NCBI GenBank assembly: GCA_030668875.1
Contig: DAOVER010000005.1
Location: forward strand, 26,597-90,596
DNA: 64,000 bases
Source: Candidatus Heimdallarchaeota archaeon
Lineage (GTDB): Archaea > Asgardarchaeota > Heimdallarchaeia > Heimdallarchaeales > Heimdallarchaeaceae
Reading direction: 5' to 3'
Under the pieces are notes generated by a model, which was given only the letters and a program-made list of their open reading frames with translations, had not been told where the DNA came from and made no database searches. Below, in pieces: positions 20,130-32,335 of the stretch. Numbering within the stretch: the first letter of the stretch is position 1; each line of letters begins with the position of its first letter. The position numbers were made by a program, and so were the translations under genes.

Positions 20130-20783
20130 GTGAAATGTATGGGTCTACGTATCTTTTCAGTTAATAAAGATGGTAGTTTTTTCGAGGTTCCATCAGAGAA
20201 AGAGAGTTTTCTTCGCGGTGATGGAGCTTATTTGATTGTAGATAGAAAAGAAAAGAAGATATTCATCTATCGAAAAATGGGCATATCAAGTGCTTTAGCA
20301 TATTCAGCCGCTAGAGCAGCAACCAACCTTAATACACATAAGGGTTCTAGATACAAAATCATTAACATAGAGGAGGAAGAGAAGGATCGTATACTTCCAT
20401 CACTTTATCAGAGGCTAGATGTTTCGATTCCAAGTGAGATTAAAGAAAGTAAAGAAACTGCGATTGCCTCGAGAAATATTGTTTATGGTGAAACAACCAT
20501 TCCAGTTTTTGAAACAAAAAACTATTCTTCAAGCGTCCAAACTAAGAAAGAAGAGAGAGAAATACAACCTGTAAGAAAAATTCTTCAAATAGAGAAAGAG
20601 AAGGAGAGTTACAAAACTCAAAATATTGATGAGTTAGTTAAAACTTTGGCAAATCAGATTCTTTTTGAAACTAAATTAGACAAAGCCAAAAAAATGAATA
20701 AGCCAGCAAGACATATTCTGAAAGCTGAAATGGTTAAAAAGATAGATTCGTTATTAGATAATATCTATGAAGAGGACAACTAA
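20130..20783 (+). CDS. gelsolin/cofilin-like domain protein with a K/E-rich tail
   Basis: LRIFSVNKDGSFFEVPSEKESFLRGDGAYLIVDRKEKKIFIYRKMGISSALAYSAARAATNL...IEEEEK aligns by eye with the gelsolin repeat pattern (L.IWRV...VP...F..GD.Y.I......Y.W.G..S......A...A..L....E). Confidence 0.45.
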   Translation: MKCMGLRIFSVNKDGSFFEVPSEKESFLRGDGAYLIVDRKEKKIFIYRKMGISSALAYSAARAATNLNTHKGSRYKIINIEEEEKDRILPSLYQRLDVSIPSEIKESKETAIASRNIVYGETTIPVFETKNYSSSVQTKKEEREIQPVRKILQIEKEKESYKTQNIDELVKTLANQILFETKLDKAKKMNKPARHILKAEMVKKIDSLLDNIYEEDN

Positions 20784-22150
20784 TTACCCTCTTTCTGTAT
20801 TTTCGCAATGAAAAAACCTTCAGTTTCATGAAGGTGAGGATATAATTCTTGAGCTTTATTTTCCAATAGATTAGATTCTATGCCAATCATTGGTGAGGCT
20901 AGCATTAATGAAAAGTTTGAGTTGTTCTTGAGAAACTGTGAAATAATCTCATGATTTTCGTCTTCAAAGAGTGAACAAGTTGAATAAACAATACACCCAC
21001 CCACTTCAAGAAGCTTGGAGGCTTCATCAAGCAAAGCATTCTGTAGTTTAATATACCAATTAAGATCTCTCTGTTTCATTCTCCATTTAATATCAGGTCT
21101 TGAAGAATAAGTTCCTGATCCAGAGCATGGGGGATCAAGTAGAATTTTGTCAAAAGTTGATTTAACAGTTTTTTTTAGAGTTCTCGCGTCTGCTGATAAA
21201 ATTTTAACTTCTTCAGCACCTAACAATTTTAATCGATCAGTTAATATTTTCACTCTTTCCTTGTTTAAATCAACAGCCAAGATATTTTTTGCTGTACCAG
21301 CTTGAGCTACAATATGTGAAGTTTTTCCCCCTGGTGATGCGCACATATCGAGTATTTCCTCGCCTAGTTGTGGATTCAGAACTAGTGAAACCAAGGCAGA
21401 AGCTTTTTGCTGTATAACAAGCTTGCCTTCCTTAAATTCATCTAAACGTGGAATTGGTACAGGTGTTTCATCAATGCGTATAAGATTTGGTATAATTTCA
21501 ACAGGGGTGTACTTTATCTCATAGGTTGCAAGATTGTCAACAATCTCATCAAAAGATGCTTTTAGGGTATTAATTCTTACATACATCGGGATACTTTCAA
21601 GTAAGGATTGCAAAACTTTCTCTGTGAAATCTACTCCCCATTGTTTGATGAATTTCCTAATTATCCAAGTATAAGTAAAATACTTCAGAGAATATTTTGA
21701 GGGTAAATCTTCGCGATTCTCAAAGAGATTTTCTTCAGTTACTGATTGGATTAATTCTAACAAAGTGTCAAAAGACATTTGAGCAACGGAGCGATAGTAG
21801 GGTTCAAGCATAGTAACTACTTCGTCAACTGGTTTATTATTTACTTTCAACATGTGTGTAGCTATGCGTAATAGTGCTCTCATATCACTCTTTATTTTTT
21901 TCAGAGAGAAATTTGATGAGCTTGTTTTTATAAAAAGATCAATCCAGTTAAGTTTTCTATAAATCTCATTAGTATAATAATATAGAGTAGATTCTTCTTC
22001 TCTATCTAAATTATATTGATTAACGTGAAAACGTAAAACATTACGTAAAGATTTCCCATTATCTATATCTTCTAATGCAGACATAACTATAGGAATAATA
22101 GAATCCATCACATCCCAACTCTCTCTTCTGGAGTCATTGTCTCTTTTCAC
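20780..22150 (-). CDS. NOL1/NOP2/Sun (RsmB-like) RNA cytosine-C5 methyltransferase
   Basis: DMCASPGGKT, LLDPPCSGSGT and YSTCS motifs. Confidence 0.9.
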   Translation of the reverse strand: MKRDNDSRRESWDVMDSIIPIVMSALEDIDNGKSLRNVLRFHVNQYNLDREEESTLYYYTNEIYRKLNWIDLFIKTSSSNFSLKKIKSDMRALLRIATHMLKVNNKPVDEVVTMLEPYYRSVAQMSFDTLLELIQSVTEENLFENREDLPSKYSLKYFTYTWIIRKFIKQWGVDFTEKVLQSLLESIPMYVRINTLKASFDEIVDNLATYEIKYTPVEIIPNLIRIDETPVPIPRLDEFKEGKLVIQQKASALVSLVLNPQLGEEILDMCASPGGKTSHIVAQAGTAKNILAVDLNKERVKILTDRLKLLGAEEVKILSADARTLKKTVKSTFDKILLDPPCSGSGTYSSRPDIKWRMKQRDLNWYIKLQNALLDEASKLLEVGGCIVYSTCSLFEDENHEIISQFLKNNSNFSLMLASPMIGIESNLLENKAQELYPHLHETEGFFIAKIQKEGN

Positions 22151-22161
22151 TATATATTGGT

Positions 22162-22968
22162 TTAGTTGGTTAAATCATTAACAGAAATCCAGTTTACTAT
22201 CTCTTGCGGATAGAAAATTACTTTCTGCTCTACTTTCATTTGTAATAACTGTGAAAACTTTCTAAGAGCGACATTACAGAAATCTTGAATAGGGATAAAT
22301 AGGAAATTCATTTTGTTTTGTTTGTATTCCTTTAATCGTTTTGAATCTAAATTGAAACTAACCACTGTAGTTACTCCTTCCTTCTTGAGTTTCTTTAGTT
22401 CTTCTGACGATAATTCTTGCTTTTCCAGTACAAAACATTCAGGTTTATCATCGGATGTGTTGTTAAAAGCTATCCATTTCTTTGTGAGATGTGAAAGATT
22501 TGCTAGGAAATCTTTGAAAGAAATTTCGCTAGCATTCCAGCGAGAAATGTTGTTACCTGGAGATACGGAAACTTTGTCTTGTTTAAATCGATTGACACCA
22601 AGTGTTTGTAGAAAGTATGCAAAAGCACCATTTTTTGAGTATAACCAGTTATTTGATAGGCTCATTGTTTTGATATTATTGGTAGTTAAAGAGCGTAATA
22701 ATTCAAAATCTCGCTCAGATAATGGAAAACCATTTTCGATAATAGATAATGGCAGAATAGTGATAACCAGATTAGATTTGTTATCATTCATCGAGTGTGT
22801 AAGTCTAAGATTAGCAAATGTGGAAACGAAGATCGTTTTTACTATAGTAGATTTTGTAACCTTTTCTGCATAAGTTCCAAATTCAAGCCCAAAATCCTTA
22901 TTTCGTATGACATCTTTATCACACATTGAGCTAAGTAATTTCAATATCTCGTCTAAAGTTTTTGTCAT
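22162..22968 (-). CDS. hypothetical protein (268 aa)
   Basis: Intact ORF 11 nt downstream of the NSUN gene on the same strand. No motif recognised. Confidence 0.5.
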   Translation of the reverse strand: MTKTLDEILKLLSSMCDKDVIRNKDFGLEFGTYAEKVTKSTIVKTIFVSTFANLRLTHSMNDNKSNLVITILPLSIIENGFPLSERDFELLRSLTTNNIKTMSLSNNWLYSKNGAFAYFLQTLGVNRFKQDKVSVSPGNNISRWNASEISFKDFLANLSHLTKKWIAFNNTSDDKPECFVLEKQELSSEELKKLKKEGVTTVVSFNLDSKRLKEYKQNKMNFLFIPIQDFCNVALRKFSQLLQMKVEQKVIFYPQEIVNWISVNDLTN

Positions 22969-23943: not shown

Positions 23944-25221
23944 ATGGGTGGAATTAAGAGAAAAAGAAAGAAAATCGAAACGCCAGGTCATCCTTATGAT
24001 AAAGCTCGCTTAGAGAGAGAACTCCCTCTTGTTGGTGCTTATGGTTTAAGAAACAAGCGCGAATTATGGAAAGCAAGAACTATTCTTTCTACAGCTAGAC
24101 AACAAGCTAGAGGCTTACTAGCTCTTGACCCTGAAATTAGAAAAGTTAGAGAACAAGAACTTCTTTCAAGACTCTCTCGTTTTGGTATGTTATCTCAGAA
24201 TAGCAATCTTGACTCTGTTTTAGCACTTGAAATTAAAGTCATTCTTGAAAGAAGACTTCAAACAATTGTATTCAGAAAAGGTTTAGCATCCTCTCCGTAC
24301 CAAGCTCGTCAATTTATTGCTCACAGACACATAGCTATTGGAACTGGTGTTGCAACATCTCCTAGCAGATTAATCACAATAGCTGAAGAGGAGATAGTCA
24401 ACTACGCTCCCCGTTCTCCACTGAATGATCAAACTCATCCTTCGCGACCTCAAGCACCTCCTGCTTTTGATGCGGGGCAACCTGAGAAAAGGGAAGAACA
24501 TAAGCGTGAAAGAACTGGAAGAGATGGCAAACCTAGAAGGAAAGAAGCTCCAAAGAAGGAAACTAAACCAGGAGTTAAACCAAAACCAGAGGTAAAGAAG
24601 GAAACTCCAAAGAAAGAAGCTCCAAAGAAGGAAACTAAACCAGGAGTTAAACCAAAACCAGAGGTAAAGAAGGAAACTCCAAAGAAAGAAGTTCCAAAGA
24701 AGGAAACTCCAAAACCAGAGGTAAAGAAGGAAACTCCAAAGAAAGAAGTTCCAAAGAAGGAAACTCCAAAACCAGAGGTAAAGAAGGAAACTCCAAAACC
24801 AGAGGTAAAAAAGGAAACTCCAAAACCAGAGGTTAAAACAAAGCCAGAAGTGAAGAAAGAGGTTCCAAAGAAGGAAACTAAACCAGAAGTTAAAACAAAG
24901 CCAGAGGTAAAGAAGGAAACTCCAAAACCAGAGGTAAAGAAGGAAACTCCAAAACCAGAGGTTAAAACAAAGCCAGAAGTAAAGAAAGAAGCTCCAAAGA
25001 AGGAAACTAAAATCTCTGACCTTGACATCTCTTTGATAAAAGGTATTGGTGCAAAAACTGCCATGCTTCTCAAAGAAAATGGCTTTGATACTGTTGGTAA
25101 GATTGCTAAGGCAACTACTGAAGAACTTTCCAAAGTTCCAGGTGTTGGTCCCGCTACTGCATCAGCTATGAATAGTGAAGCTAAAGTTTTGCTTTCAAAG
25201 AAAGCTGAGGATAAGAAGTAG
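23944..25221 (+). CDS. rps4: 30S ribosomal protein uS4 with a C-terminal extension of about 260 aa (K/P/E tandem repeats plus an HhH module)
   Basis: The N-terminal ~165 aa is a normal archaeal S4 (PGHPYDKARLERE...S4 RNA-binding domain). Then come KPEVKKETPKKE repeats and ISDLDISLIKGIGAKTAMLLKENGFDTVGKIAKATTEELSKVPGVGPATA. Confidence 0.9.
   Translation: MGGIKRKRKKIETPGHPYDKARLERELPLVGAYGLRNKRELWKARTILSTARQQARGLLALDPEIRKVREQELLSRLSRFGMLSQNSNLDSVLALEIKVILERRLQTIVFRKGLASSPYQARQFIAHRHIAIGTGVATSPSRLITIAEEEIVNYAPRSPLNDQTHPSRPQAPPAFDAGQPEKREEHKRERTGRDGKPRRKEAPKKETKPGVKPKPEVKKETPKKEAPKKETKPGVKPKPEVKKETPKKEVPKKETPKPEVKKETPKKEVPKKETPKPEVKKETPKPEVKKETPKPEVKTKPEVKKEVPKKETKPEVKTKPEVKKETPKPEVKKETPKPEVKTKPEVKKEAPKKETKISDLDISLIKGIGAKTAMLLKENGFDTVGKIAKATTEELSKVPGVGPATASAMNSEAKVLLSKKAEDKK
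24544..25008 (+). repeat. in-frame coding tandem repeats inside uS4 (72-nt unit x2, 57-nt unit x2, then shorter KPEVKKETP variants)
   Basis: gaagctccaaagaaggaaactaaaccaggagttaaaccaaaaccagaggtaaagaaggaaactccaaagaaa recurs with a 72-nt period at 24544 and 24616. Related units continue to about 25008. Confidence 0.9.
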
Positions 25222-25805: not shown

Positions 25806-26252
25806 ATGACAATTACTAAAGCTAAAATATTTGCATGTGAAATCTGTGGGAAAGAGTTTGGAAGAAAGGACAATCTAGGAAGGCACAAAATAACAGTTCA
25901 TTCCAAATCACAGAAGCATAAATGTCCAAAGTGCAATTTTTCTTCAACAAGAAAAGATAGTCTTGATAAACATATCAAAGAAGTTCACAGTGAAGTAAAG
26001 CAATATTCTTGTAAAATGTGTGGAGAAAGGTTCACACAAAAAGGGAGTATGGAAAGGCATATAGATTCCTCTCATAAAGACGTTTTTTCTTTTGCATGTC
26101 CCAAATGCAATTCAATTTTCTCAAGAAAAGATAGCTTGTTACGACATATCAGAAGTGTGCACGAAGGTATAAGACCTCACAAATGTTCAGAATGTGGTAA
26201 AAGCTTTCAACATAAACATCATCTGAAGGATCACCTAATTTTAGGTCATTGA
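25806..26252 (+). CDS. C2H2 zinc-finger protein, 5 tandem fingers
   Basis: There are five C-x2-C-x12-H-x4-H units, for example CEICGKEFGRKDNLGRHKITVH and CSECGKSFQHKHHLKDHLILGH. The period is about 28-29 aa with linkers such as EGIRPHKC. Confidence 0.9.
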   Translation: MTITKAKIFACEICGKEFGRKDNLGRHKITVHSKSQKHKCPKCNFSSTRKDSLDKHIKEVHSEVKQYSCKMCGERFTQKGSMERHIDSSHKDVFSFACPKCNSIFSRKDSLLRHIRSVHEGIRPHKCSECGKSFQHKHHLKDHLILGH

Positions 26253-26261
26253 GGGAAGGAA

Positions 26262-27425
26262 ATGAGTAACTCGGAAAAAATAATAATGCGACCAACTTGT
26301 GAAATCTGCGGTCTTAGTTTTTCAAGAAAAGACAGTTTGTATAGACACAAACGATCAGTTCATTCAGAGTCAAAGAAATATAGCTGTACAGAATGCAATC
26401 TCACATTTTCTCGTAAAGATACACTGGATCGTCACATCAATGATGTCCACAAACAAATAAGGAAATATATTTGTACCATATGTGACGAGAAGTTCAAACA
26501 AGCGGGTGCTCTAAAAAGACATATCCAAACAATGCATGAGAAGAATATTAGTTATGAATGTCCAAACTGTGATGCAGCATTCCCGCGTAAAGACAACCTA
26601 GACAGACACATAAATGCCGTTCATTTAAACCTCCGACCCCACATTTGCCAGGAATGTGGTGCAGCTTTCAAACTACCTGATCACCTTAAGCAGCACATTA
26701 TTTCCATACATACTGACCGGCGTCAATATGTTTGTGATGAATGTGGTTTTGCTTTCAAACTTCGTCAACATCTAAATGATCATGTCAAAGTTGTTCACCT
26801 AGGTCTTCGTTCTTATGCTTGTGAGGAATGTGATTCTTCTTTTGCTCATGCTCGTGCTCTTAAGCAACACATTATTTCTGTTCATACCGATGAACTTCCT
26901 TATGTTTGCGAGAAATGTAAGAGAGGATTTGCAGATCCTAGTCATCTATATAGGCATGAAAAAGCTGAAGCTTGTTGGTTTACAACTACTACTGCCTACA
27001 AATGGGAAGAGCTTTGTAAAGAGATAGCTGAGATTCTTTTAGAGGAAAAGAATTGGGAGTGGAAACCTACTATAGAAACACCTGAGTTGGTTGAACAGAC
27101 TAGAGTGCAGCCTGAGATTGTTATCTATAATGATGATGGTACGATGGATTTTATCGATGCTAAGAGGTCTACTTATGCTATTTTCAAGGAGAAGGATCTG
27201 GTAGTTTATCCTAAGGTGGCTAGGAGGGTGGAGTTCTGGTGCCTCTACGGTAAAACCAAGGGGATATTTGAAGAGGAGGAAGGGGTGGAAGCGAAATCAA
27301 GTGAAGAAATCATTGGCAAACTAGAAAAGGAAGATTCGCATGATGGACAGAGAGTAAGGAATCTAATAATGAAGATTAGTTTATTGAAAAAGGGAATAAG
27401 ATTTGAAGGACAACAGACACTGTAG
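26262..27425 (+). CDS. C2H2 zinc-finger protein with 8 tandem fingers and a C-terminal domain of about 150 aa carrying a PD-(D/E)XK-like motif
   Basis: Seven C-x2-C-x12-H-x4-H fingers plus a terminal C2HC-like finger (CEKCKRGFADPSHLYRHEKAEAC). The C-terminal region has KWEELCKEIAEILLEE ... VQPEIVIYNDDGTMDFIDAKRS. Confidence 0.85.
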   Translation: MSNSEKIIMRPTCEICGLSFSRKDSLYRHKRSVHSESKKYSCTECNLTFSRKDTLDRHINDVHKQIRKYICTICDEKFKQAGALKRHIQTMHEKNISYECPNCDAAFPRKDNLDRHINAVHLNLRPHICQECGAAFKLPDHLKQHIISIHTDRRQYVCDECGFAFKLRQHLNDHVKVVHLGLRSYACEECDSSFAHARALKQHIISVHTDELPYVCEKCKRGFADPSHLYRHEKAEACWFTTTTAYKWEELCKEIAEILLEEKNWEWKPTIETPELVEQTRVQPEIVIYNDDGTMDFIDAKRSTYAIFKEKDLVVYPKVARRVEFWCLYGKTKGIFEEEEGVEAKSSEEIIGKLEKEDSHDGQRVRNLIMKISLLKKGIRFEGQQTL

Positions 27426-27464: not shown

Positions 27465-28283
27465 TCAATACCCATACCTTGAGGGTAAGCTTGATCTGTA
27501 ATCATAACTTCTAAACAAGTTTTCAATTAACCGAGGGATAGATTCGCCCCTAAAATCTCTAACTGTGTCTATTATATCGTCATCTTTACCCTCTAACAGC
27601 TTCAACCAAAGCTGAGGTTTGTATCTTACAATGTTGGAAAGCATCCAAGAACCTACAAATGCATCAAATGGGTTATAACTTCCTATCACATCAACAAATG
27701 AAGGAACAGATCTCTTTTCCAAATAATCAGAAATATTTGGAAAGCCCTTGAGATTGTCTTCAGCTAAAAGAAGTAGTAAGCTGTAAAAAACACCTTTATC
27801 ATAGACTTTAGCATGCATATACGGTCTGTTTTCTACATATTTGCCTTTTTTCGAAAGACCATGATGAGTGAAGAAAAACACCTCGTCTTTCATTTCATAT
27901 TCAAGACAGAACACTCCTTTGACACATTGTAATAATGCATAGTATTCAACAAGTGGGCTAGAGTTTTCATCCATTTTTAAGGCAGTTTTAAACATCTCAT
28001 AGATCTGTTGAAAATAGATACTAGAATAAATAGCTATTTCAGTATAATCGATTTCAAAATCCCTAGTTTTCACTAGATTTGCTTTCTTATGGATATTTTC
28101 TAGAAGATTAATTTTTGCATCTTTACGCTCTCTTTCAGTCTTATGGATTCTTCTAGATTTCATTTGCTCTTCTTTTGAATCACAGGTTGGATTGAACCTG
28201 GTAATCAATTTTTTCTTAAGATAATATGGAATAGAGTATTTCTCAAGATTATAGAGAACGATTTGGTGATACTTGTCAATCAT
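27465..28283 (-). CDS. hypothetical protein, YaaC-like (weak), partner of the PLD nuclease gene
   Basis: Starts 3 nt after the upstream PLD gene stop. The C-terminal SWMLSNIVRYKPQLWLKLLEG resembles the YaaC-family ...RY.P..W... region. Confidence 0.35.
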   Translation of the reverse strand: MIDKYHQIVLYNLEKYSIPYYLKKKLITRFNPTCDSKEEQMKSRRIHKTERERKDAKINLLENIHKKANLVKTRDFEIDYTEIAIYSSIYFQQIYEMFKTALKMDENSSPLVEYYALLQCVKGVFCLEYEMKDEVFFFTHHGLSKKGKYVENRPYMHAKVYDKGVFYSLLLLLAEDNLKGFPNISDYLEKRSVPSFVDVIGSYNPFDAFVGSWMLSNIVRYKPQLWLKLLEGKDDDIIDTVRDFRGESIPRLIENLFRSYDYRSSLPSRYGY

Positions 28284-28285
28284 TA

Positions 28286-29068
28286 TTAAACCTCAGTTTT
28301 ATTAATTTTCAATCGGATTGGTTTCAGTTGTCTATAGCAAGAACGGCAGGCAGGTTTATTTGTTGAAATACTTACCTCAGCTCCACATATGTGACAATAA
28401 TTTCCCTTAACAAAACCTCTTCTCTTATCTTTCCAACAATCCTTACACCTTATAACGTGGGTCTCTATTGCATCAAGAGCTATTTTTTTCTTGCAAACTA
28501 TGCAAAAACCCAGTTCTTCTTGATTTTCAGCATAAACAGTAAAGTGTTCTCCTTCTTGTTTGAATTGTAGCTCAATCGCCTGTTTACCATTATCAATAGC
28601 TCTAATTTCTTCTCCATTTCTAACAAGAACTGAGATATATTTATCAATCAATTCTAAGTTAGGCAAATCGTCTTCACCTTCGAAATCGACTCCAATCTCA
28701 AAGTTATCCTTTAGTGAATGGTAATAAAGATTCATTGAAGTAGTTAATGCTCTATCTCCATTATAATAACACTTTGCATGAAGATTAGGTACAAGCCAAA
28801 TTTCATCAGAATAATCGTATAGCTTATCTCTTATAGCTTGTGTTTTCGTCAACCTTTTCTCAGCTGATTTATCATCTGGTTTTCTTGTAATAAAGACAAT
28901 TTGCAGATCTTTGTTTTGTTCTATTAAACTATCCATTAACCTAGACCACTGACCATCTTTTTTTTCAAGTTGAATATAGGGGCTAACTATATGTATGTGT
29001 TTAGTAGCCCTTTCAACTATTTCCTCTATAGCCCCAAATATAGAGCCAGTGCTTGTTAGAATTTTCAC
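28286..29068 (-). CDS. PLD-superfamily (single HKD, Nuc-like) nuclease with a C-terminal four-CxxC zinc ribbon
   Basis: NLHAKCYYNGDRALTTSMNL is an HxK...D...SxN motif. The C-terminus has CIVC...CKDC...CHIC...CRSC. Confidence 0.6.
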   Translation of the reverse strand: MKILTSTGSIFGAIEEIVERATKHIHIVSPYIQLEKKDGQWSRLMDSLIEQNKDLQIVFITRKPDDKSAEKRLTKTQAIRDKLYDYSDEIWLVPNLHAKCYYNGDRALTTSMNLYYHSLKDNFEIGVDFEGEDDLPNLELIDKYISVLVRNGEEIRAIDNGKQAIELQFKQEGEHFTVYAENQEELGFCIVCKKKIALDAIETHVIRCKDCWKDKRRGFVKGNYCHICGAEVSISTNKPACRSCYRQLKPIRLKINKTEV

Positions 29069-29122
29069 TTCTTTTCACTTCCCATCCAAGCAAATAATTA
29101 AATAAACTATAAAAGTTTTTAG

Positions 29123-29139
29123 GGGATTTATTGTTTGAT
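29123..29139. repeat. left copy of the 17-bp direct repeat flanking the IS (gggatttattgtttgat)
   Basis: An identical 17-mer occurs at 30142..30158. Confidence 0.9.
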
Positions 29140-30141
29140 GTTAACTCAACTAAGATCGGTTACACTTTTGGGCAGGATATCTTTGGGAGGTTGGTTCATA
29201 AATCTTTCACCTGGAGTTTGGAGGTTGATTCCTTGATGAGGGCGGAAGAAGTTGTAATAGTCCCTATAGCGCCGGAGGTCAGCGTTACAATAAGCTAATC
29301 CCAGCCGCTTCAGCTCTCTGACGGTTGTACCATGCTGGCGCTCTACTTTCCCACAAGTCTCAGGGTGGAAGAAACGGCTGCGGATATGCTTTATTCCTTC
29401 CTGAGCGAGCACGCGGGTGAAGGTACTTGTCCCTCCTCGCATAGAGTGGAACTGTGCTCCATTGTCTGTTAGTACTTGCTGGGGACGCCTATAAAGCTGG
29501 AAGCAGTGGTGTAACCTTGTCAAGATCTCTTGCTGGCTAATAGGATGGGTGTAGAGTCTACTCTCCAGGAGGAAGCGGGAGTGGTCATCAATGATGGTTA
29601 AAAGATAAAGGTGTTGTCCTTGCTCTTCCACCCAGAAGGGACCTTTGATATCCAGTTGCCAGAGGTCATTGGGTTTGGGTCGTTCGAATCTCTTTCTCGC
29701 CTTCTTCTTGTACGGTTTCTTTCTCCAAGGAGGTTCTCCTTCTCGTTGGAGAGTCTTCCAGATGGTGGTGTGGGAGAGCACCAAGCCTTTCCTCTTGAAC
29801 CATTGCTCAGTCTGCATGATGTTCAAGCCATAGGCTCGTCTCAAGGTGAGGATCTTCTTCTTTATCTGTGGTGTTACCTTTCTCCTTATGCATCTTGGTC
29901 GTCGAGAGCGTTCTTCCCACCATTTTCCCTTGGGGTTCTCACGATAACGTCTTAACCAGGTGTAGACGAATTTTCTTGAGACCATGTACTGTCGAGCAAG
30001 GTGGGTGATAGGTGTTCTTTTCAAAGCCTTTTTAACTACGCGTTTCCTTATAAGTGTCGGGTTACTGTTCGGGTTCATTTAACTCATTTACCCACGGTAA
30101 CCCCTCTTATTTAACTGTCACCAATGTGGGTGGAGTTAACA
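29140..30141 (-). mobile_element. IS481-like insertion sequence (about 1.0 kb, single transposase ORF)
   Basis: Imperfect terminal inverted repeats: (T)GTTAACTCAACTAAGATCGG versus the reverse complement TGTTAACTCCACCCACATTGG. It is flanked by a 16-17 bp direct repeat. GC content is clearly higher (about 50% in lines I counted) than the flanks (about 30-35%). Confidence 0.85.
29146..30078 (-). CDS. DDE transposase (HTH plus integrase-core rve domain), IS481-family-like
   Basis: LWQLDIKGPF (first D), IIDDHSRF, LTDNGAQF (second D), HPETCGKVERQH (E) and YNFFRPHQGI. Confidence 0.9.
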   Translation of the reverse strand: MNPNSNPTLIRKRVVKKALKRTPITHLARQYMVSRKFVYTWLRRYRENPKGKWWEERSRRPRCIRRKVTPQIKKKILTLRRAYGLNIMQTEQWFKRKGLVLSHTTIWKTLQREGEPPWRKKPYKKKARKRFERPKPNDLWQLDIKGPFWVEEQGQHLYLLTIIDDHSRFLLESRLYTHPISQQEILTRLHHCFQLYRRPQQVLTDNGAQFHSMRGGTSTFTRVLAQEGIKHIRSRFFHPETCGKVERQHGTTVRELKRLGLAYCNADLRRYRDYYNFFRPHQGINLQTPGERFMNQPPKDILPKSVTDLS

Positions 30142-30158
30142 GGGATTTATTGTTTGAT
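30142..30158. repeat. right copy of the 17-bp direct repeat flanking the IS
   Basis: Identical to 29123..29139. Confidence 0.9.
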
Positions 30159-30175
30159 TAATGAAAAGTTCTGTA

Positions 30176-31246
30176 TCATCGTTGTCTTATAACATAATTT
30201 ACAATTGTTTCAACCTCTTTTGAAGAAAATGTTTCTTCGAAATAAGAGATATAATTCACTATTTCTTTAAGTGAAAGAACTTTCACAAACTGAAATTGCT
30301 CTTTAGGTTTAGCATTAGTCATTAGAAGCACACTACGAATAGCGATTTTCTTTTTTCCCCAATGATGAGAACTAAGACGAAGAGAACCACTAGAAACAGA
30401 GCTATTTAGAAGAGTGAAAAGAGCAAAATTTGCACGTCTAATTTGTTTAACTGGTGAAAACAGGTTCAGATTTTGTAGAGATTTCTCGCTCCAGTTTTTA
30501 GTTTCAAGTAAAAACACTCCTGAAGGACCAACAACAAGATGGTCAACTTGTATAGATAATATTTTATCATTTTCTTTTCTATTGCAAATTGGACGATTAA
30601 AAGACATCTGAAGATCATTGATAACAGTGAATGTATCTGGAAGTTTCTTTAGTTCTTCAGTAACTTGTTGTTCTCCTATGGTTCCAGAAATTAGGGTGTA
30701 GTTATCATCTAAAATTCTATTTATGAGATTGATTCGGTTAGTATAATTTTGAGATCGTTTTGATATTAAGGTTTCAAAGTTGGTTTCACGATAGGTTACA
30801 TCGCGTTCTAGATTCTTAATTTTCTTGGAAAGATGACGAAAGGGTTTTTCAACTTCATCTATAAAATAGTGTGTCAACTTGTCAAGTCTTTTAGAAAGTT
30901 GATTGAGTTTAATTTTGTAAAATAGGAGCTTGAAAGGATTCTTAGTCGATGAGGAATATTGAATGATCTTAGAAGGGATTAGTTCTTTTTCTTCATTAAG
31001 TAATTTTGTTTGATTAGATATCATCTCTTGATATTGATTTGTGAGTAGAGTATAATCGGATTTAAGTTGACTAATTTCAGCAAGAAGTTTCTCTTTTTGC
31101 TGTTCTTGATGCTGTGAAATAGAATTTTTCCAAGTTTTCTTAAAAGTCTGTATTGATTCAAGAGTTGAAAACTCTCTGATGTTATTTTGTTTTAAGACAT
31201 ATAGAAGATGATTAAGAGAACTAGAATTACCATATATGCGAGCCAA
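30176..31246 (-). CDS. NERD (nuclease-related domain) protein with a long N-terminal coiled coil
   Basis: GTIGEQQVTEELKKLPDTFTVINDL...ILSIQVDHLVVGPSGVFLLETKNW is the NERD signature. The N-terminal ~190 aa is heptad-rich. Confidence 0.8.
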   Translation of the reverse strand: MARIYGNSSSLNHLLYVLKQNNIREFSTLESIQTFKKTWKNSISQHQEQQKEKLLAEISQLKSDYTLLTNQYQEMISNQTKLLNEEKELIPSKIIQYSSSTKNPFKLLFYKIKLNQLSKRLDKLTHYFIDEVEKPFRHLSKKIKNLERDVTYRETNFETLISKRSQNYTNRINLINRILDDNYTLISGTIGEQQVTEELKKLPDTFTVINDLQMSFNRPICNRKENDKILSIQVDHLVVGPSGVFLLETKNWSEKSLQNLNLFSPVKQIRRANFALFTLLNSSVSSGSLRLSSHHWGKKKIAIRSVLLMTNAKPKEQFQFVKVLSLKEIVNYISYFEETFSSKEVETIVNYVIRQR

Positions 31247-31400
31247 AGAAATACCTCCATTCCAACGGAATATTCAATCAAACAATCTTAATAAAACTTG
31301 TTATGAACAGGTATTCGTCCATTTTATAATTTAGACCGTAGAATGTAGTTTTACTCATTCACATTTTTCTTTTATTTTTGTAATATTCTTATATACTGAA

Positions 31401-31859
31401 ATGTTAGACTGTTTCTCAATGGGTCTCAACATCGATTTATCCAAACTTGATTACGCCTTTCATCGTAAACCTTTGCTTATAGGTGGGAAAGTTATGGAAT
31501 ATTATAATCTACGTAAAGCAGGTGATGATGTAGACTTTGTTGTAGCTTTAGAAGACTATGAAGGCTTAAAAGAAGCCTATCCAGAACCAGAATACCAGAG
31601 GGGCTTATTTGGTGATCTTGGAGTAACAGTTGATGAATCAGAGGTTTGGAAATGTATATGTCTTTTCGAATATAAATTCTTATCAGAAAAAGCATTAGAA
31701 ATGGAAGAATATCTAATCATATCATTAGAGAAATTGCTCTTTTTGAAAGTTTTAGCAATGCACAAAAGAAAATATCGAAAAGATGTAAAACTGATAAGGC
31801 AAAAGATTCTGGACAATAAATATGATGACGAAGAGTGGAAGGAGAAATATATGAAATAA
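31401..31859 (+). CDS. hypothetical protein, possible minimal nucleotidyltransferase fold
   Basis: LLIGGKVMEYYNLRKAGDDVDFVV resembles the GG...R...D.D motif of small nucleotidyltransferases (weak). Confidence 0.3.
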   Translation: MLDCFSMGLNIDLSKLDYAFHRKPLLIGGKVMEYYNLRKAGDDVDFVVALEDYEGLKEAYPEPEYQRGLFGDLGVTVDESEVWKCICLFEYKFLSEKALEMEEYLIISLEKLLFLKVLAMHKRKYRKDVKLIRQKILDNKYDDEEWKEKYMK

Positions 31860-31885
31860 CATTGTAGAAAGGAGCTTACTTCTTC

Positions 31886-32335
31886 TCAATTCTCCTTTAT
31901 CGTACCGGTCAATTCGAGTAATTGTTCATATTGCCAAACGCGTTCCTTAGTATCAACTTTAGCAGCATAATTTGCTGCATGAACAGCGTGCCCTGCAACA
32001 TGGACAGTAGCAGTTGCATGACCAGCTGCACGTGCAACTGTACAAGCTACAGCGTTATCAACTTCTCTAGCCGCGGCATGAGCAGCAAATGCTGCAGAGC
32101 GTACCTTACCTACAGAGATCTCCCCATATGTCCATGAATGTGCTGCTTCTATCGCTTTCCTCGGTCGGTCATCATTGGGAAATTTATCTTCAAAATAGGA
32201 TAACACATGTTCCACACAATAAATCGCCCAGATCACCAATGATCTTTTTTCCATTTTGCTTGTAATCTCTGCAATCTTCTTCTTAAGGTCGCTCTCGGAA
32301 TTAAGGGCAGAACTATCCTCACTCATACTTACCAT
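31886..32335 (-). CDS. Ala/His-rich helical protein of the family usually annotated as putative immunity protein (Imm-5-like)
   Basis: WAIYCVEHVLSYFE...DDRPRKAIEAAHSWTYGEISVGKVRSAAFAAHAAAREV...ARAAGHATATVHVAGHAVHAANYAAKV matches the W..CAEHVL/D.RPR.AIEAA/AAHAAAR/AAGHA pattern I recall for that family. Confidence 0.45.
   Translation of the reverse strand: MVSMSEDSSALNSESDLKKKIAEITSKMEKRSLVIWAIYCVEHVLSYFEDKFPNDDRPRKAIEAAHSWTYGEISVGKVRSAAFAAHAAAREVDNAVACTVARAAGHATATVHVAGHAVHAANYAAKVDTKERVWQYEQLLELTGTIKEN

Follow-up and report, generated by a model that had tools for sequence, protein, structure and literature searches.

Two adjacent genes of a Candidatus Heimdallarchaeota archaeon, one for a PLD-superfamily protein with zinc-binding motifs and one for a YaaC-like protein, raise the question of whether they constitute a conserved two-gene system or have merely come to lie side by side. 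A first-pass annotation had proposed a two-gene cassette acting in phage defence or as a toxin/immunity pair. Both genes lie on the minus strand of the window, the 64,000-nucleotide stretch of contig DAOVER010000005.1 that was analysed as a whole. Profile searches, structure prediction and comparison with related loci lead us to favour, as the probable reading, two independent, autonomous nuclease-type accessory genes that were joined into one operon in a recombining island of about 5 kb.

The upstream gene of the pair (28286-29068) begins with GTG and encodes a protein of 260 aa, here termed PLD-Zn, which joins a single-HKD domain to a C-terminal double Cys4 zinc module. Its sequence holds one HKD motif only, HAKCYYNGDRALTTSMNL (residues 97-114; codons at 28727-28780, minus strand), with catalytic H97, K99 and N113. 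The motif is one residue shorter before S/T-x-N than the canonical HKD, and Asn103 occupies the canonical Asp position. Among 31 homologues, H97, K99, S111 and N113 are invariant, and Asn103 is nearly so. The match to Pfam PLDc_2 is a marginal pass (29.1 bits against a cut-off of 27), and the same profile is matched by all 31 family members examined (best, 2.6e-13). No sequence-level match was found in the PDB. The AF2 model (pLDDT 81.9 overall, about 90 in residues 1-155 and 57-85 across residues 161-260) was matched by Foldseek with probability 1.00 to NucT, SauUSI, BfiI, Nuc and Zucchini, with TM-target values of 0.74 to Nuc and 0.70 to NucT. By motif, profile and predicted fold, PLD-Zn is a member of the single-HKD nuclease branch of the PLD superfamily, as the first-pass annotation had held.

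The four CxxC motifs noted earlier at the C-terminus are located at residues 189 (CIVC), 208 (CKDC), 225 (CHIC) and 241 (CRSC). They form two CxxC...CxxC modules (C189/C192/C208/C211 and C225/C228/C241/C244; codons at 28337-28504, minus strand). C189, C192, C225, H226, C228, C241 and C244 are invariant across the 31 homologues, and the second CxxC (208/211) is variable. The Pfam double zinc ribbon DZR_2 scores 19.6 bits, under its cut-off, and reaches E<=0.01 in 5 of the 31 family members. In the predicted structure, the second CxxC of each module sits at a helix N-terminus, and the modules look treble-clef-like.

PLD-Zn resembles Nuc (pKM101/Salmonella, PDB 1byr), NucT (6ehi) and BfiI (2c1l) in carrying one HKD per chain on the same fold. 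Nuc and NucT are exported proteins, secreted or located in the periplasm, and are not known to carry zinc modules. In PLD-Zn no secretion or delivery domain was found and no signal peptide was seen on inspection by eye, and the protein would be a cytoplasmic single-HKD enzyme. BfiI is similar in having an N-terminal catalytic PLD domain followed by a separate domain, putatively for binding in PLD-Zn. The C-terminal domain of BfiI, however, has a B3-like DNA-binding fold, whereas that of PLD-Zn consists of Cys4 zinc modules. On the model of Nuc and BfiI, a pair of PLD-Zn monomers may build one active site, each contributing H97, K99 and N113, and phosphodiester bonds would be cut without metal via a covalent phospho-histidine. 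The nucleic acid would be held by the two zinc modules at the end of a flexible linker.

Among defence proteins, the best PADLOC matches of PLD-Zn are DrmC (4.9e-11), MkoC (1.6e-6) and DpdK (1.2e-3). Membership of DISARM (DrmC), Mokosh (MkoB/MkoC) or Dpd (DpdK) was nevertheless rejected: scores fall far under the cut-offs (27.6 bits against 133 for the NCBIfam model DISARM_DrmC_I, NF038319, and 19.2 against 100 for DpdK), and none of the partner sets (DrmA/DrmB/methylase, the Mokosh helicase or the Dpd genes) occurs within the window. Judging by the model matches, the double zinc module is also absent from DrmC, MkoB/MkoC and DpdK. For the PLD plus double-zinc architecture, neither a dedicated model nor a description was found, and a literature search on PLD-zinc-ribbon defence genes returned nothing specific.

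The downstream gene (27465-28283, minus strand; ATG start) encodes 272 aa. The earlier comparison with YaaC is confirmed by Pfam PF14175 (42.4 bits, cut-off 27), and its relatives carry the annotation PF14175 or are named "YaaC family protein". In the archaeal subfamily, with 48 representatives at E<=1e-30, the proteins are 260-300 aa long and lack an insertion of about 100-150 aa present in distant relatives of 320-390 aa. With Bacillus subtilis YaaC and PF14175 in general, subfamily and distant members alike share Y115, H141-G142 and R220-Y221 as invariant positions. H141 (codon 27861-27863), part of an invariant His-Gly, is present in 35 of 36 subfamily sequences, R220 (codon 27624-27626) in all 36, and both are invariant across the broad YaaC family; W226 is likewise conserved without exception in the 36 subfamily sequences. 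Pfam describes PF14175 merely as a "YaaC-like Protein", and no function was reported in the literature searched.

The predicted structure of the YaaC-family protein (pLDDT 90.3) suggests a HEPN core of four helices, preceded by a helical extension at the N-terminus. The canonical HEPN motif Rx4-6H is not conserved in the subfamily: at no position does it occur in more than 5 of the 36 sequences, and no conserved His lies 4-6 residues after R220, which is followed by W226 instead. HEPN proteins of the AF0298/AbiV type keep the Arg and use an alternative conserved His from an insert between helices 2 and 3 (Anantharaman et al., 2013; PMC3710099). The arrangement in YaaC fits this description, with R220, at the R position of Rx4-6H, ending helix 205-221 and with H141 between helices 109-128 and 205-221. 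[quoted passage not shown] YaaC differs from AF0298 (PDB 2hsb) and AbiV in being twice the size, with an N-terminal helical extension of about 80 aa and an insert of about 75 aa. At the level of sequence and fold, a PDB profile search, hhalign against AbiV (probability 0.05 with the AbiV homologue of locus L004) and Foldseek were all negative for a link to HEPN, and Pfam HEPN_AbiV (PF18728) gave no match at E<=1. YaaC (PF14175), with its invariant His...Arg pair, is a probable HEPN protein of the AF0298/AbiV type, and its most likely activity would be that of an RNase or of an RNA-binding protein.

The junction of the two genes (28284-28294, minus strand) is compact, in keeping with the tight coupling described in the first-pass annotation. 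An SD-like GAGG (28294-28291) lies 7 nt upstream of the YaaC ATG (28283-28281), and the PLD stop codon TAA (28288-28286) is separated from this ATG by a spacer of 2 nt (TA, 28285-28284). The junction is identical in a 96%-identical sister strain (locus L010). Between the two strains, dN/dS of the PLD gene is 0.13, indicative of purifying selection, and that of YaaC is about 1, a value drawn from only 15 differences. Both ORFs are real genes rather than chance ORFs. The short spacer and the GAGG, kept in the sister strain, argue for co-transcription and possibly for translational coupling, and a lineage-specific functional link between the two genes is possible. A TTTATA box 45 nt 5' of the PLD GTG (29108-29113, minus strand) is a candidate archaeal promoter element, by consensus match only.

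Conservation of the pairing was examined in 164 fetched loci by means of HMMs for the subfamily and for the broad family (E<=0.01), and 132 flanking proteins were scanned against Pfam. Both genes occur together only in the sister strain. At E<=0.01, a YaaC-family ORF was found in none of the 144 PLD-seeded loci and PLD in none of the 16 YaaC-seeded loci. Across this and related Heimdallarchaeota genomes, the same syntenic locus holds NERD-PLD-YaaC in the window and L010, NERD, a 298-aa gene and PLD in L007 and L008, APH-PLD in L013, and YaaC without PLD in L001-3. In the metagenome-assembled genome JAUWPI01, PLD and YaaC lie on different contigs, 74 and 17 respectively, and YaaC adjoins a gene for an MmeI-type enzyme. 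Since each gene is found without the other in the genomes examined outside one lineage, their adjacency is best described as a local juxtaposition in a variable hotspot and not as a conserved two-gene system. The joining would have taken place in one Heimdallarchaeota-like lineage. Genes of 298 aa (L007, L008) and 185 aa (L001) that have been swapped in at the locus were considered as cryptic YaaC or PLD relatives and rejected for want of similarity; a 246-aa gene downstream in L100 was likewise considered as AbiV-like and showed no BLAST similarity.

The island itself (27465-32335) lies between a backbone of rpS13-S4-S11 and C2H2 zinc-finger genes and an MBL-fold gene; outside it, the window contains housekeeping genes. 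Upstream of PLD is an IS481-like insertion (29123-30158, minus strand), comprising an element of about 1.0 kb (29140-30141) with inverted repeats, a transposase ORF (29146-30078; rve, 56.9 bits, and HTH domains) and a perfect 17-bp target duplication, GGGATTTATTGTTTGAT. Its GC content is 0.46 against about 0.33, it is missing from L010, and the insertion is fresh. Beyond it follows a NERD-domain gene (30176-31246, minus strand; NERD 52.1 bits), the upstream neighbour of PLD, whose product has a coiled-coil-like N-terminal half. Next is a gene for a 152-aa protein, p152 (31401-31859, plus strand), with no Pfam, PADLOC, NCBIfam or PDB match; it is conserved in L001-3 and L013, and its GG...DDVDF motif may be nucleotidyltransferase-like. 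A HEPN-MNT pairing of YaaC with p152, the sole nucleotidyltransferase-like candidate, was rejected: the two genes lie 3 kb apart on opposite strands, and p152 is absent from seven other YaaC contexts. At the outer end of the island is an Imm5-like gene (31886-32335, minus strand; PF21805, 134.3 bits), with homologues in L007 and L013. The identity profile of the window against L010 is mosaic, ranging from 70 to 99%. Its near-identical block extends from the middle of PLD into the 3' part of the zinc-finger gene and thus does not coincide with the boundaries of the pair. For this reason, and because no repeats flank the pair and the sole target duplication is that of the IS, a discrete mobile two-gene cassette was rejected. 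A viral or plasmid origin was also rejected: no YaaC was found on viral contigs or plasmids, and viral and plasmid matches to PLD-Zn cover the catalytic domain only. Phage homologues with the PLD domain only are annotated "DNA repair protein".

One alternative reading is a genuine but lineage-restricted two-component module for virus defence or abortive infection, in which PLD and YaaC, once joined, would work together as dual DNase and RNase effectors or as a DNase with a HEPN sensor or regulator. HEPN-HKD/PLD nuclease fusions and HEPN genes inside R-M operons are known (Anantharaman et al., 2013; PMC3710099), and such independently documented fusions make a DNase plus HEPN unit a plausible design. 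They likewise place a HEPN-type domain and an HKD-fold DNase in one transcription unit; here, however, the genes are separate and the combination is not recurrent. The SAV_2148-type fusion carries an inactive HEPN (PMC3710099), unlike YaaC, which keeps conserved candidate catalytic residues. The 2-nt spacer and GAGG of both strains, and the company of NERD, Imm5-like and IS sequences in the island, are also in favour of this module. Nevertheless, the pair exists in one lineage only, close relatives have just one of the two genes at this locus, the recombination block ignores the pair boundaries, and there is no evidence that PLD and YaaC interact, so that we regard the module as unlikely. A stronger version, in which the recently joined operon would give an Asgard archaeon a new dual DNase/RNase module against viruses and the PLD-Zn and YaaC families would each be unrecognised single-gene defence nucleases, is likewise unlikely. 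A three-gene NERD-PLD(-YaaC) system, with NERD as the true partner of PLD, would account for the fact that NERD precedes PLD in three Heimdall lineages (window/L010, L007 and L008) and is 63-79% identical across them. However, an opposite-strand gene, that of 298 aa, lies between NERD and PLD in L007 and L008, L013 has PLD without NERD, and of the other 79 PLD loci from reference genomes none has a NERD homologue. In the window, the IS now parts NERD from PLD, which keeps its own TTTATA box, and the divergence history of NERD differs. Such a system is very improbable.

The behaviour of each family on its own bears on the remaining readings. PLD-Zn is found in at least 580 species genomes of bacteria and archaea, and 447 neighbours of its genes fall into 414 clusters, with no conserved neighbour. 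It was solitary in all 84 non-sister loci examined (L007-L009 and L013-L092), which come from cellular genomes and from contigs of metagenomes and include the same locus in three close relatives. This is difficult to reconcile with the toxin/immunity or toxin-antitoxin pair of the first-pass annotation, in which YaaC would neutralise a toxic PLD nuclease: given that at least 80 sampled genomes retain the PLD gene by itself, such a relation is particularly improbable. Tight coupling with a putative immunity gene downstream, and the nearby Imm5-like gene of an immunity family, are in its favour. YaaC, however, shows enzyme-like conservation (invariant H141 and R220) and occurs without a partner in about 10 lineages, and its probable HEPN fold makes a second effector-type protein likelier than an immunity factor; PLD-Zn, for its part, has no domain for secretion or delivery. 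This pair is accordingly the most remote of the readings, close to negligible in probability. A role outside conflict, with PLD-Zn as a sporadic nuclease of DNA/RNA processing or repair, YaaC as a housekeeping RNA-binding protein and their adjacency as incidental, draws on the genes that flank PLD-Zn elsewhere, which are mostly housekeeping (EF-Tu, fibrillarin, FtsZ, KARI), on the housekeeping content of the window outside the island and on the repair annotation of the PLD-only phage homologues. Yet both families are patchy, their presence varies at a syntenic hotspot, and YaaC relatives adjoin AbiV, HEPN, Schlafen/AlbA_2, AAA_16 and MmeI genes; neighbourhoods of the YaaC subfamily were sampled from only about 11 independent lineages. 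R-M or defence-type genes make up some of the PLD-Zn flanks as well, though only about 10%, so that a defence role of the PLD-Zn family is not established. The non-conflict reading is improbable; a role of PLD-Zn and YaaC in defence or conflict is putative.

The reading of two autonomous accessory genes joined in one lineage means that the locus does not represent a new two-gene system, which saves follow-up effort on the pair as such. The first-pass annotation had itself named absence of the pairing from other genomes as grounds for refutation, and its proposal of a cassette or defence pair does not survive the comparison. What remains is a clear gene-flux hotspot in an Asgard archaeon, beside a ribosomal-protein cluster and marked by alternative gene contents in relatives, a fresh IS and mosaic recombination. 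The PLD-Zn family may reasonably be considered a candidate nuclease of restriction-like or repair type that acts by itself, and the invariant His...Arg pair of YaaC provides a testable RNase hypothesis with two residues to mutate.

The best-supported reading of the PLD-YaaC pair is that two autonomous nuclease-type accessory genes were made neighbours sharing an operon in one lineage, inside a gene-flux hotspot. The PLD-Zn gene (28286..29068, minus strand; a 260-aa ORF with a GTG start) and the YaaC-like gene (27465..28283, minus strand; a 272-aa ORF) adjoin one another, and their ORFs, motifs and Pfam matches bear out the PLD, four-CxxC and YaaC features reported in the first-pass annotation. 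The tight coupling proposed there also stands: the junction reads GAGGTT-TAA-TA-ATG, with a spacer of 2 nt and, 7 nt before the YaaC start, a GAGG that resembles a Shine-Dalgarno motif; it is the same in the sister strain (locus L010). A TTTATA box, a consensus match only, lies at 29113-29108, between an insertion sequence (IS) and the PLD start.

The PLD protein matches PLDc_2 in Pfam (29.1 bits; cut-off 27) and, below threshold, the double zinc ribbon DZR_2 (19.6 bits). Its HKD-type motif, HAKCYYNGDRALTTSMNL, spans residues 97-114, and its CxxC motifs begin at 189, 208, 225 and 241. In an alignment of 31 homologues, the motif's His and Lys (H97 and K99) are invariant, together with S111 and N113; C189, C192, C225, H226, C228, C241 and C244 are likewise invariant, and the second CxxC is variable. 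The AF2 model (pLDDT 81.9 overall, about 90 over residues 1-155) matches nucleases with a single HKD and their relatives (NucT, BfiI, the SauUSI nuclease domain, Nuc, Zucchini and PLD3/4) with a Foldseek probability of 1.00, Nuc at a TM-target of 0.74, and presents the C-terminal region as a pair of zinc knuckle-plus-helix modules carried on a linker of low confidence. Nuc and BfiI are homodimers with a single composite active site and covalent phospho-histidine catalysis. By analogy, PLD-Zn would form a homodimer with one composite active site and act through a covalent phospho-histidine, and its zinc modules may recognise nucleic acid. Membership in DISARM, Mokosh or Dpd was rejected: the top defence-database matches (the DrmC, MkoC and DpdK models) score far under curated cut-offs, and none of these gene sets is present in the window.

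Viral and plasmid homologues of PLD have the catalytic domain alone, so the complete PLD-zinc architecture is cellular. Homologues limited to the PLD domain (roughly residues 1-135) and lacking the zinc module are frequent in small Vibrio phages (~10 kb, H13-H18) under the annotation "DNA repair protein"; such homologues are also present on 64 IMG/VR contigs (L101-L164). PHROG phrog_9329, of unknown function, matches at 3e-12. In two family members, P0017 (425 aa, L009 355-1632) and P0018 (337 aa), the whole CxxC...CxxC double module is present twice, the second copy being C-terminal, which suggests that the zinc module serves as a binding unit that can be repeated.

The YaaC-like protein, which matches PF14175 (42.4 bits; cut-off 27), is probably a HEPN protein. 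Its model, a confident one (pLDDT 90.3, pTM 0.90), has an N-terminal helical extension followed by core helices at 80-103, 109-128, 205-221 and 237-260, with a ~75-aa insert between the second and third. The canonical Rx4-6H is absent from the 36-member subfamily, no position showing it in more than 5 of the 36 sequences. Invariant in that subfamily are R220, where the third core helix ends, and then W226; across the wider family, including distant relatives of 320-390 aa, the sole invariant residues are Y115, H141-G142 and R220-Y221. A HEPN variant with a proposed alternative RNase active site has been described in AF0298 and AbiV (Anantharaman et al., PMC3710099), and the conserved residues of the YaaC-like protein fit that description one for one; it may accordingly be counted a candidate RNase. 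The structures named for comparison with the model are 4nqf, TT1696, ST0689 and YutE, along with the AbiA HEPN domain and the HEPN toxins of HEPN/MNT systems; Foldseek gave no significant match (best E 1.5), and profile searches against PDB sequences and against an AbiV homologue were negative. The subfamily is small, with 48 representatives at E<=1e-30 among 1.84 billion proteins.

Recurrence, the test that the first-pass annotation set for the pairing, turned out against it: among 164 loci, both genes occur together only in L010, and the specific PLD-YaaC pairing is non-recurrent. The syntenic relatives all adjoin the same 387-aa zinc-finger gene. L010 (96% protein identity) has NERD-PLD-YaaC without the IS; L007 and L008 (PLD about 50%, NERD 63%) have NERD, a 298-aa gene on the opposite strand and PLD, without YaaC; L013 (PLD 50%) has Imm5-p152-APH-PLD, without YaaC and NERD; and L001-3 (YaaC 49%) have p152, a 185-aa gene and YaaC, without PLD and NERD. 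The swap-in genes (298 and 185 aa) have no family match and are unrelated to PLD or YaaC. In MAG JAUWPI01 the two are on separate contigs, PLD on contig 74 (L013) and a YaaC-subfamily gene, beside an MmeI-type R-M enzyme, on contig 17 (L005). The window itself seems to derive from a Heimdallarchaeota-like (Asgard) archaeon; the closest named relatives of both proteins belong to Heimdallarchaeota, Heimdallarchaeaceae or Hodarchaeales MAGs.

Species-representative genomes encode relatives of PLD-Zn at 580 loci or more, including Dehalococcoidia, Bacteroidota, Methanosarcinales and Woesearchaeota, and no YaaC gene lies within ±6 kb in the best 80 of them. The 447 proteins within ±3 genes of PLD-Zn fall into 414 clusters, and a Pfam scan of 132 immediate neighbours found no family in more than three and YaaC in none. 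Roughly one neighbour in ten is of R-M or defence type (type I and type IV REases, UvrD/GajB-like, HNH, McrBC). The YaaC subfamily occurs as stand-alone genes in about ten further independent contexts, none with PLD nearby; neighbours there include HEPN_AbiV (L004), MmeI and a helicase (L005/6), DUF87 (L098) and AAA_16/HEPN/Schlafen-AlbA_2 proteins (L099). Two of these neighbourhoods are HEPN-rich or defence-like: in L004 (4678-6258) a HEPN_AbiV gene (74.6 bits) directly follows the YaaC gene, and in L099 (875-7469) YaaC lies between 310-aa HEPN and 1105-aa AAA_16 proteins and a Schlafen/AlbA_2 protein.

A functional coupling of PLD and YaaC specific to this lineage is unlikely overall, yet the shared operon and the precedent of published HEPN-HKD fusions (PMC3710099) make it conceivable. 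A non-conflict housekeeping role for the two genes appears improbable beside the R-M and defence-type neighbours. That NERD and PLD form a system is quite improbable; the two recur in L007 and L008, and L013 has PLD without NERD. The toxin/immunity relationship raised for the tightly spaced pair is extremely improbable, each gene being found elsewhere without the other. Two autonomous accessory genes remain the preferred reading. The superfamilies of both proteins are already known, as is the theme of HEPN associated with R-M-type DNases.

The pair lies in a variable island of ~5 kb (27465-32335), bordered by rpS13-S4-S11 and two C2H2 zinc-finger genes on one side and an MBL-fold gene on the other; elsewhere in the window lie genes for archaeal ribosomal proteins, SecY, Rad51/RadA, PolB and a Ras-family GTPase. 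The island's order is YaaC, PLD, an IS481-like element, a NERD-domain protein, p152 and an Imm5-like protein. Located between NERD and PLD, the IS (29123-30158, minus strand; rve transposase 29146-30078; GC 0.46 vs about 0.33) is bounded by a perfect 17-bp duplication of its target, GGGATTTATTGTTTGAT, at 29123-29139 and 30142-30158, and carries imperfect terminal inverted repeats of 29 nt. It is not in L010, so its insertion is recent. The p152 gene (31401-31859, plus strand; 152 aa) carries a GG...DDVDF motif that recalls minimal nucleotidyltransferases and has no match in Pfam, PADLOC, NCBIfam or PDB; it is conserved close to the island in L001-3 and in L013 and is inconsistent as a YaaC neighbour. 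The Imm5-like gene (31886-32335, minus strand; PF21805, 134 bits), of a polymorphic-toxin immunity family, occurs here in an archaeon without an adjacent toxin gene, and has homologues in L007 and L013.

Comparison with L010 shows that the NERD gene (30176-31246, minus strand) is a mosaic, with 73-79% nucleotide identity over its 5' two-thirds and 95-98% at its 3' end. Identity is 87-91% over the intergenic region and the PLD 5' part, 94-99% from mid-PLD through YaaC into the zinc-finger gene's 3' part (94-96% for that part alone) and 70-81% over its finger-encoding 5' part. The borders of the near-identical block differ from those of the pair, which rules against a discrete mobile two-gene cassette and indicates homologous exchange at a hotspot rather than movement of a unit with fixed ends. 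Purifying selection acts on PLD (dN/dS 0.13, dS 0.195). YaaC (27465-28283 vs L010 3764-4582), within the recently shared block, has a ten-fold lower synonymous divergence (dS 0.019); its dN/dS of ~0.97, from only 15 differences (3 synonymous, 12 non-synonymous), could be due to relaxed selection, diversifying selection or the noise of small numbers.

The flanking backbone has features of its own. The zinc-finger genes (25806-26252 and 26262-27425, plus strand), eukaryote-like and directly after rpS11, are kept at this position in L001-3, L007, L010 and L013; the 387-aa product has 8 fingers (zf-C2H2, 144.7 bits), and in L098 a more distant C2H2 gene lies ~4 kb from YaaC. The rpS4 gene (23944-25221, plus strand; 425 aa) has an unusual architecture: an S4 domain, a ~190-aa Lys/Pro/Glu-rich repeat tract (KPEVKKETPKKE...) and a C-terminal helix-hairpin-helix domain (HHH_5, 50 bits); the gene adjoining S11 in L002 likewise has HhH matches. 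An RsmB-like methyltransferase and a 268-aa gene (20780-22968) lie upstream of rpS13 in the window but beyond the variable island in L001-3 (L001 375-2556), which implies that the ribosomal-protein/island segment was rearranged between lineages, by inversion or transposition.

Together, these results document a variable island in an Asgard genome and recognise a widespread, solitary family of PLD-plus-double-zinc nucleases, and the uncharacterised YaaC family gains a testable HEPN/RNase hypothesis.
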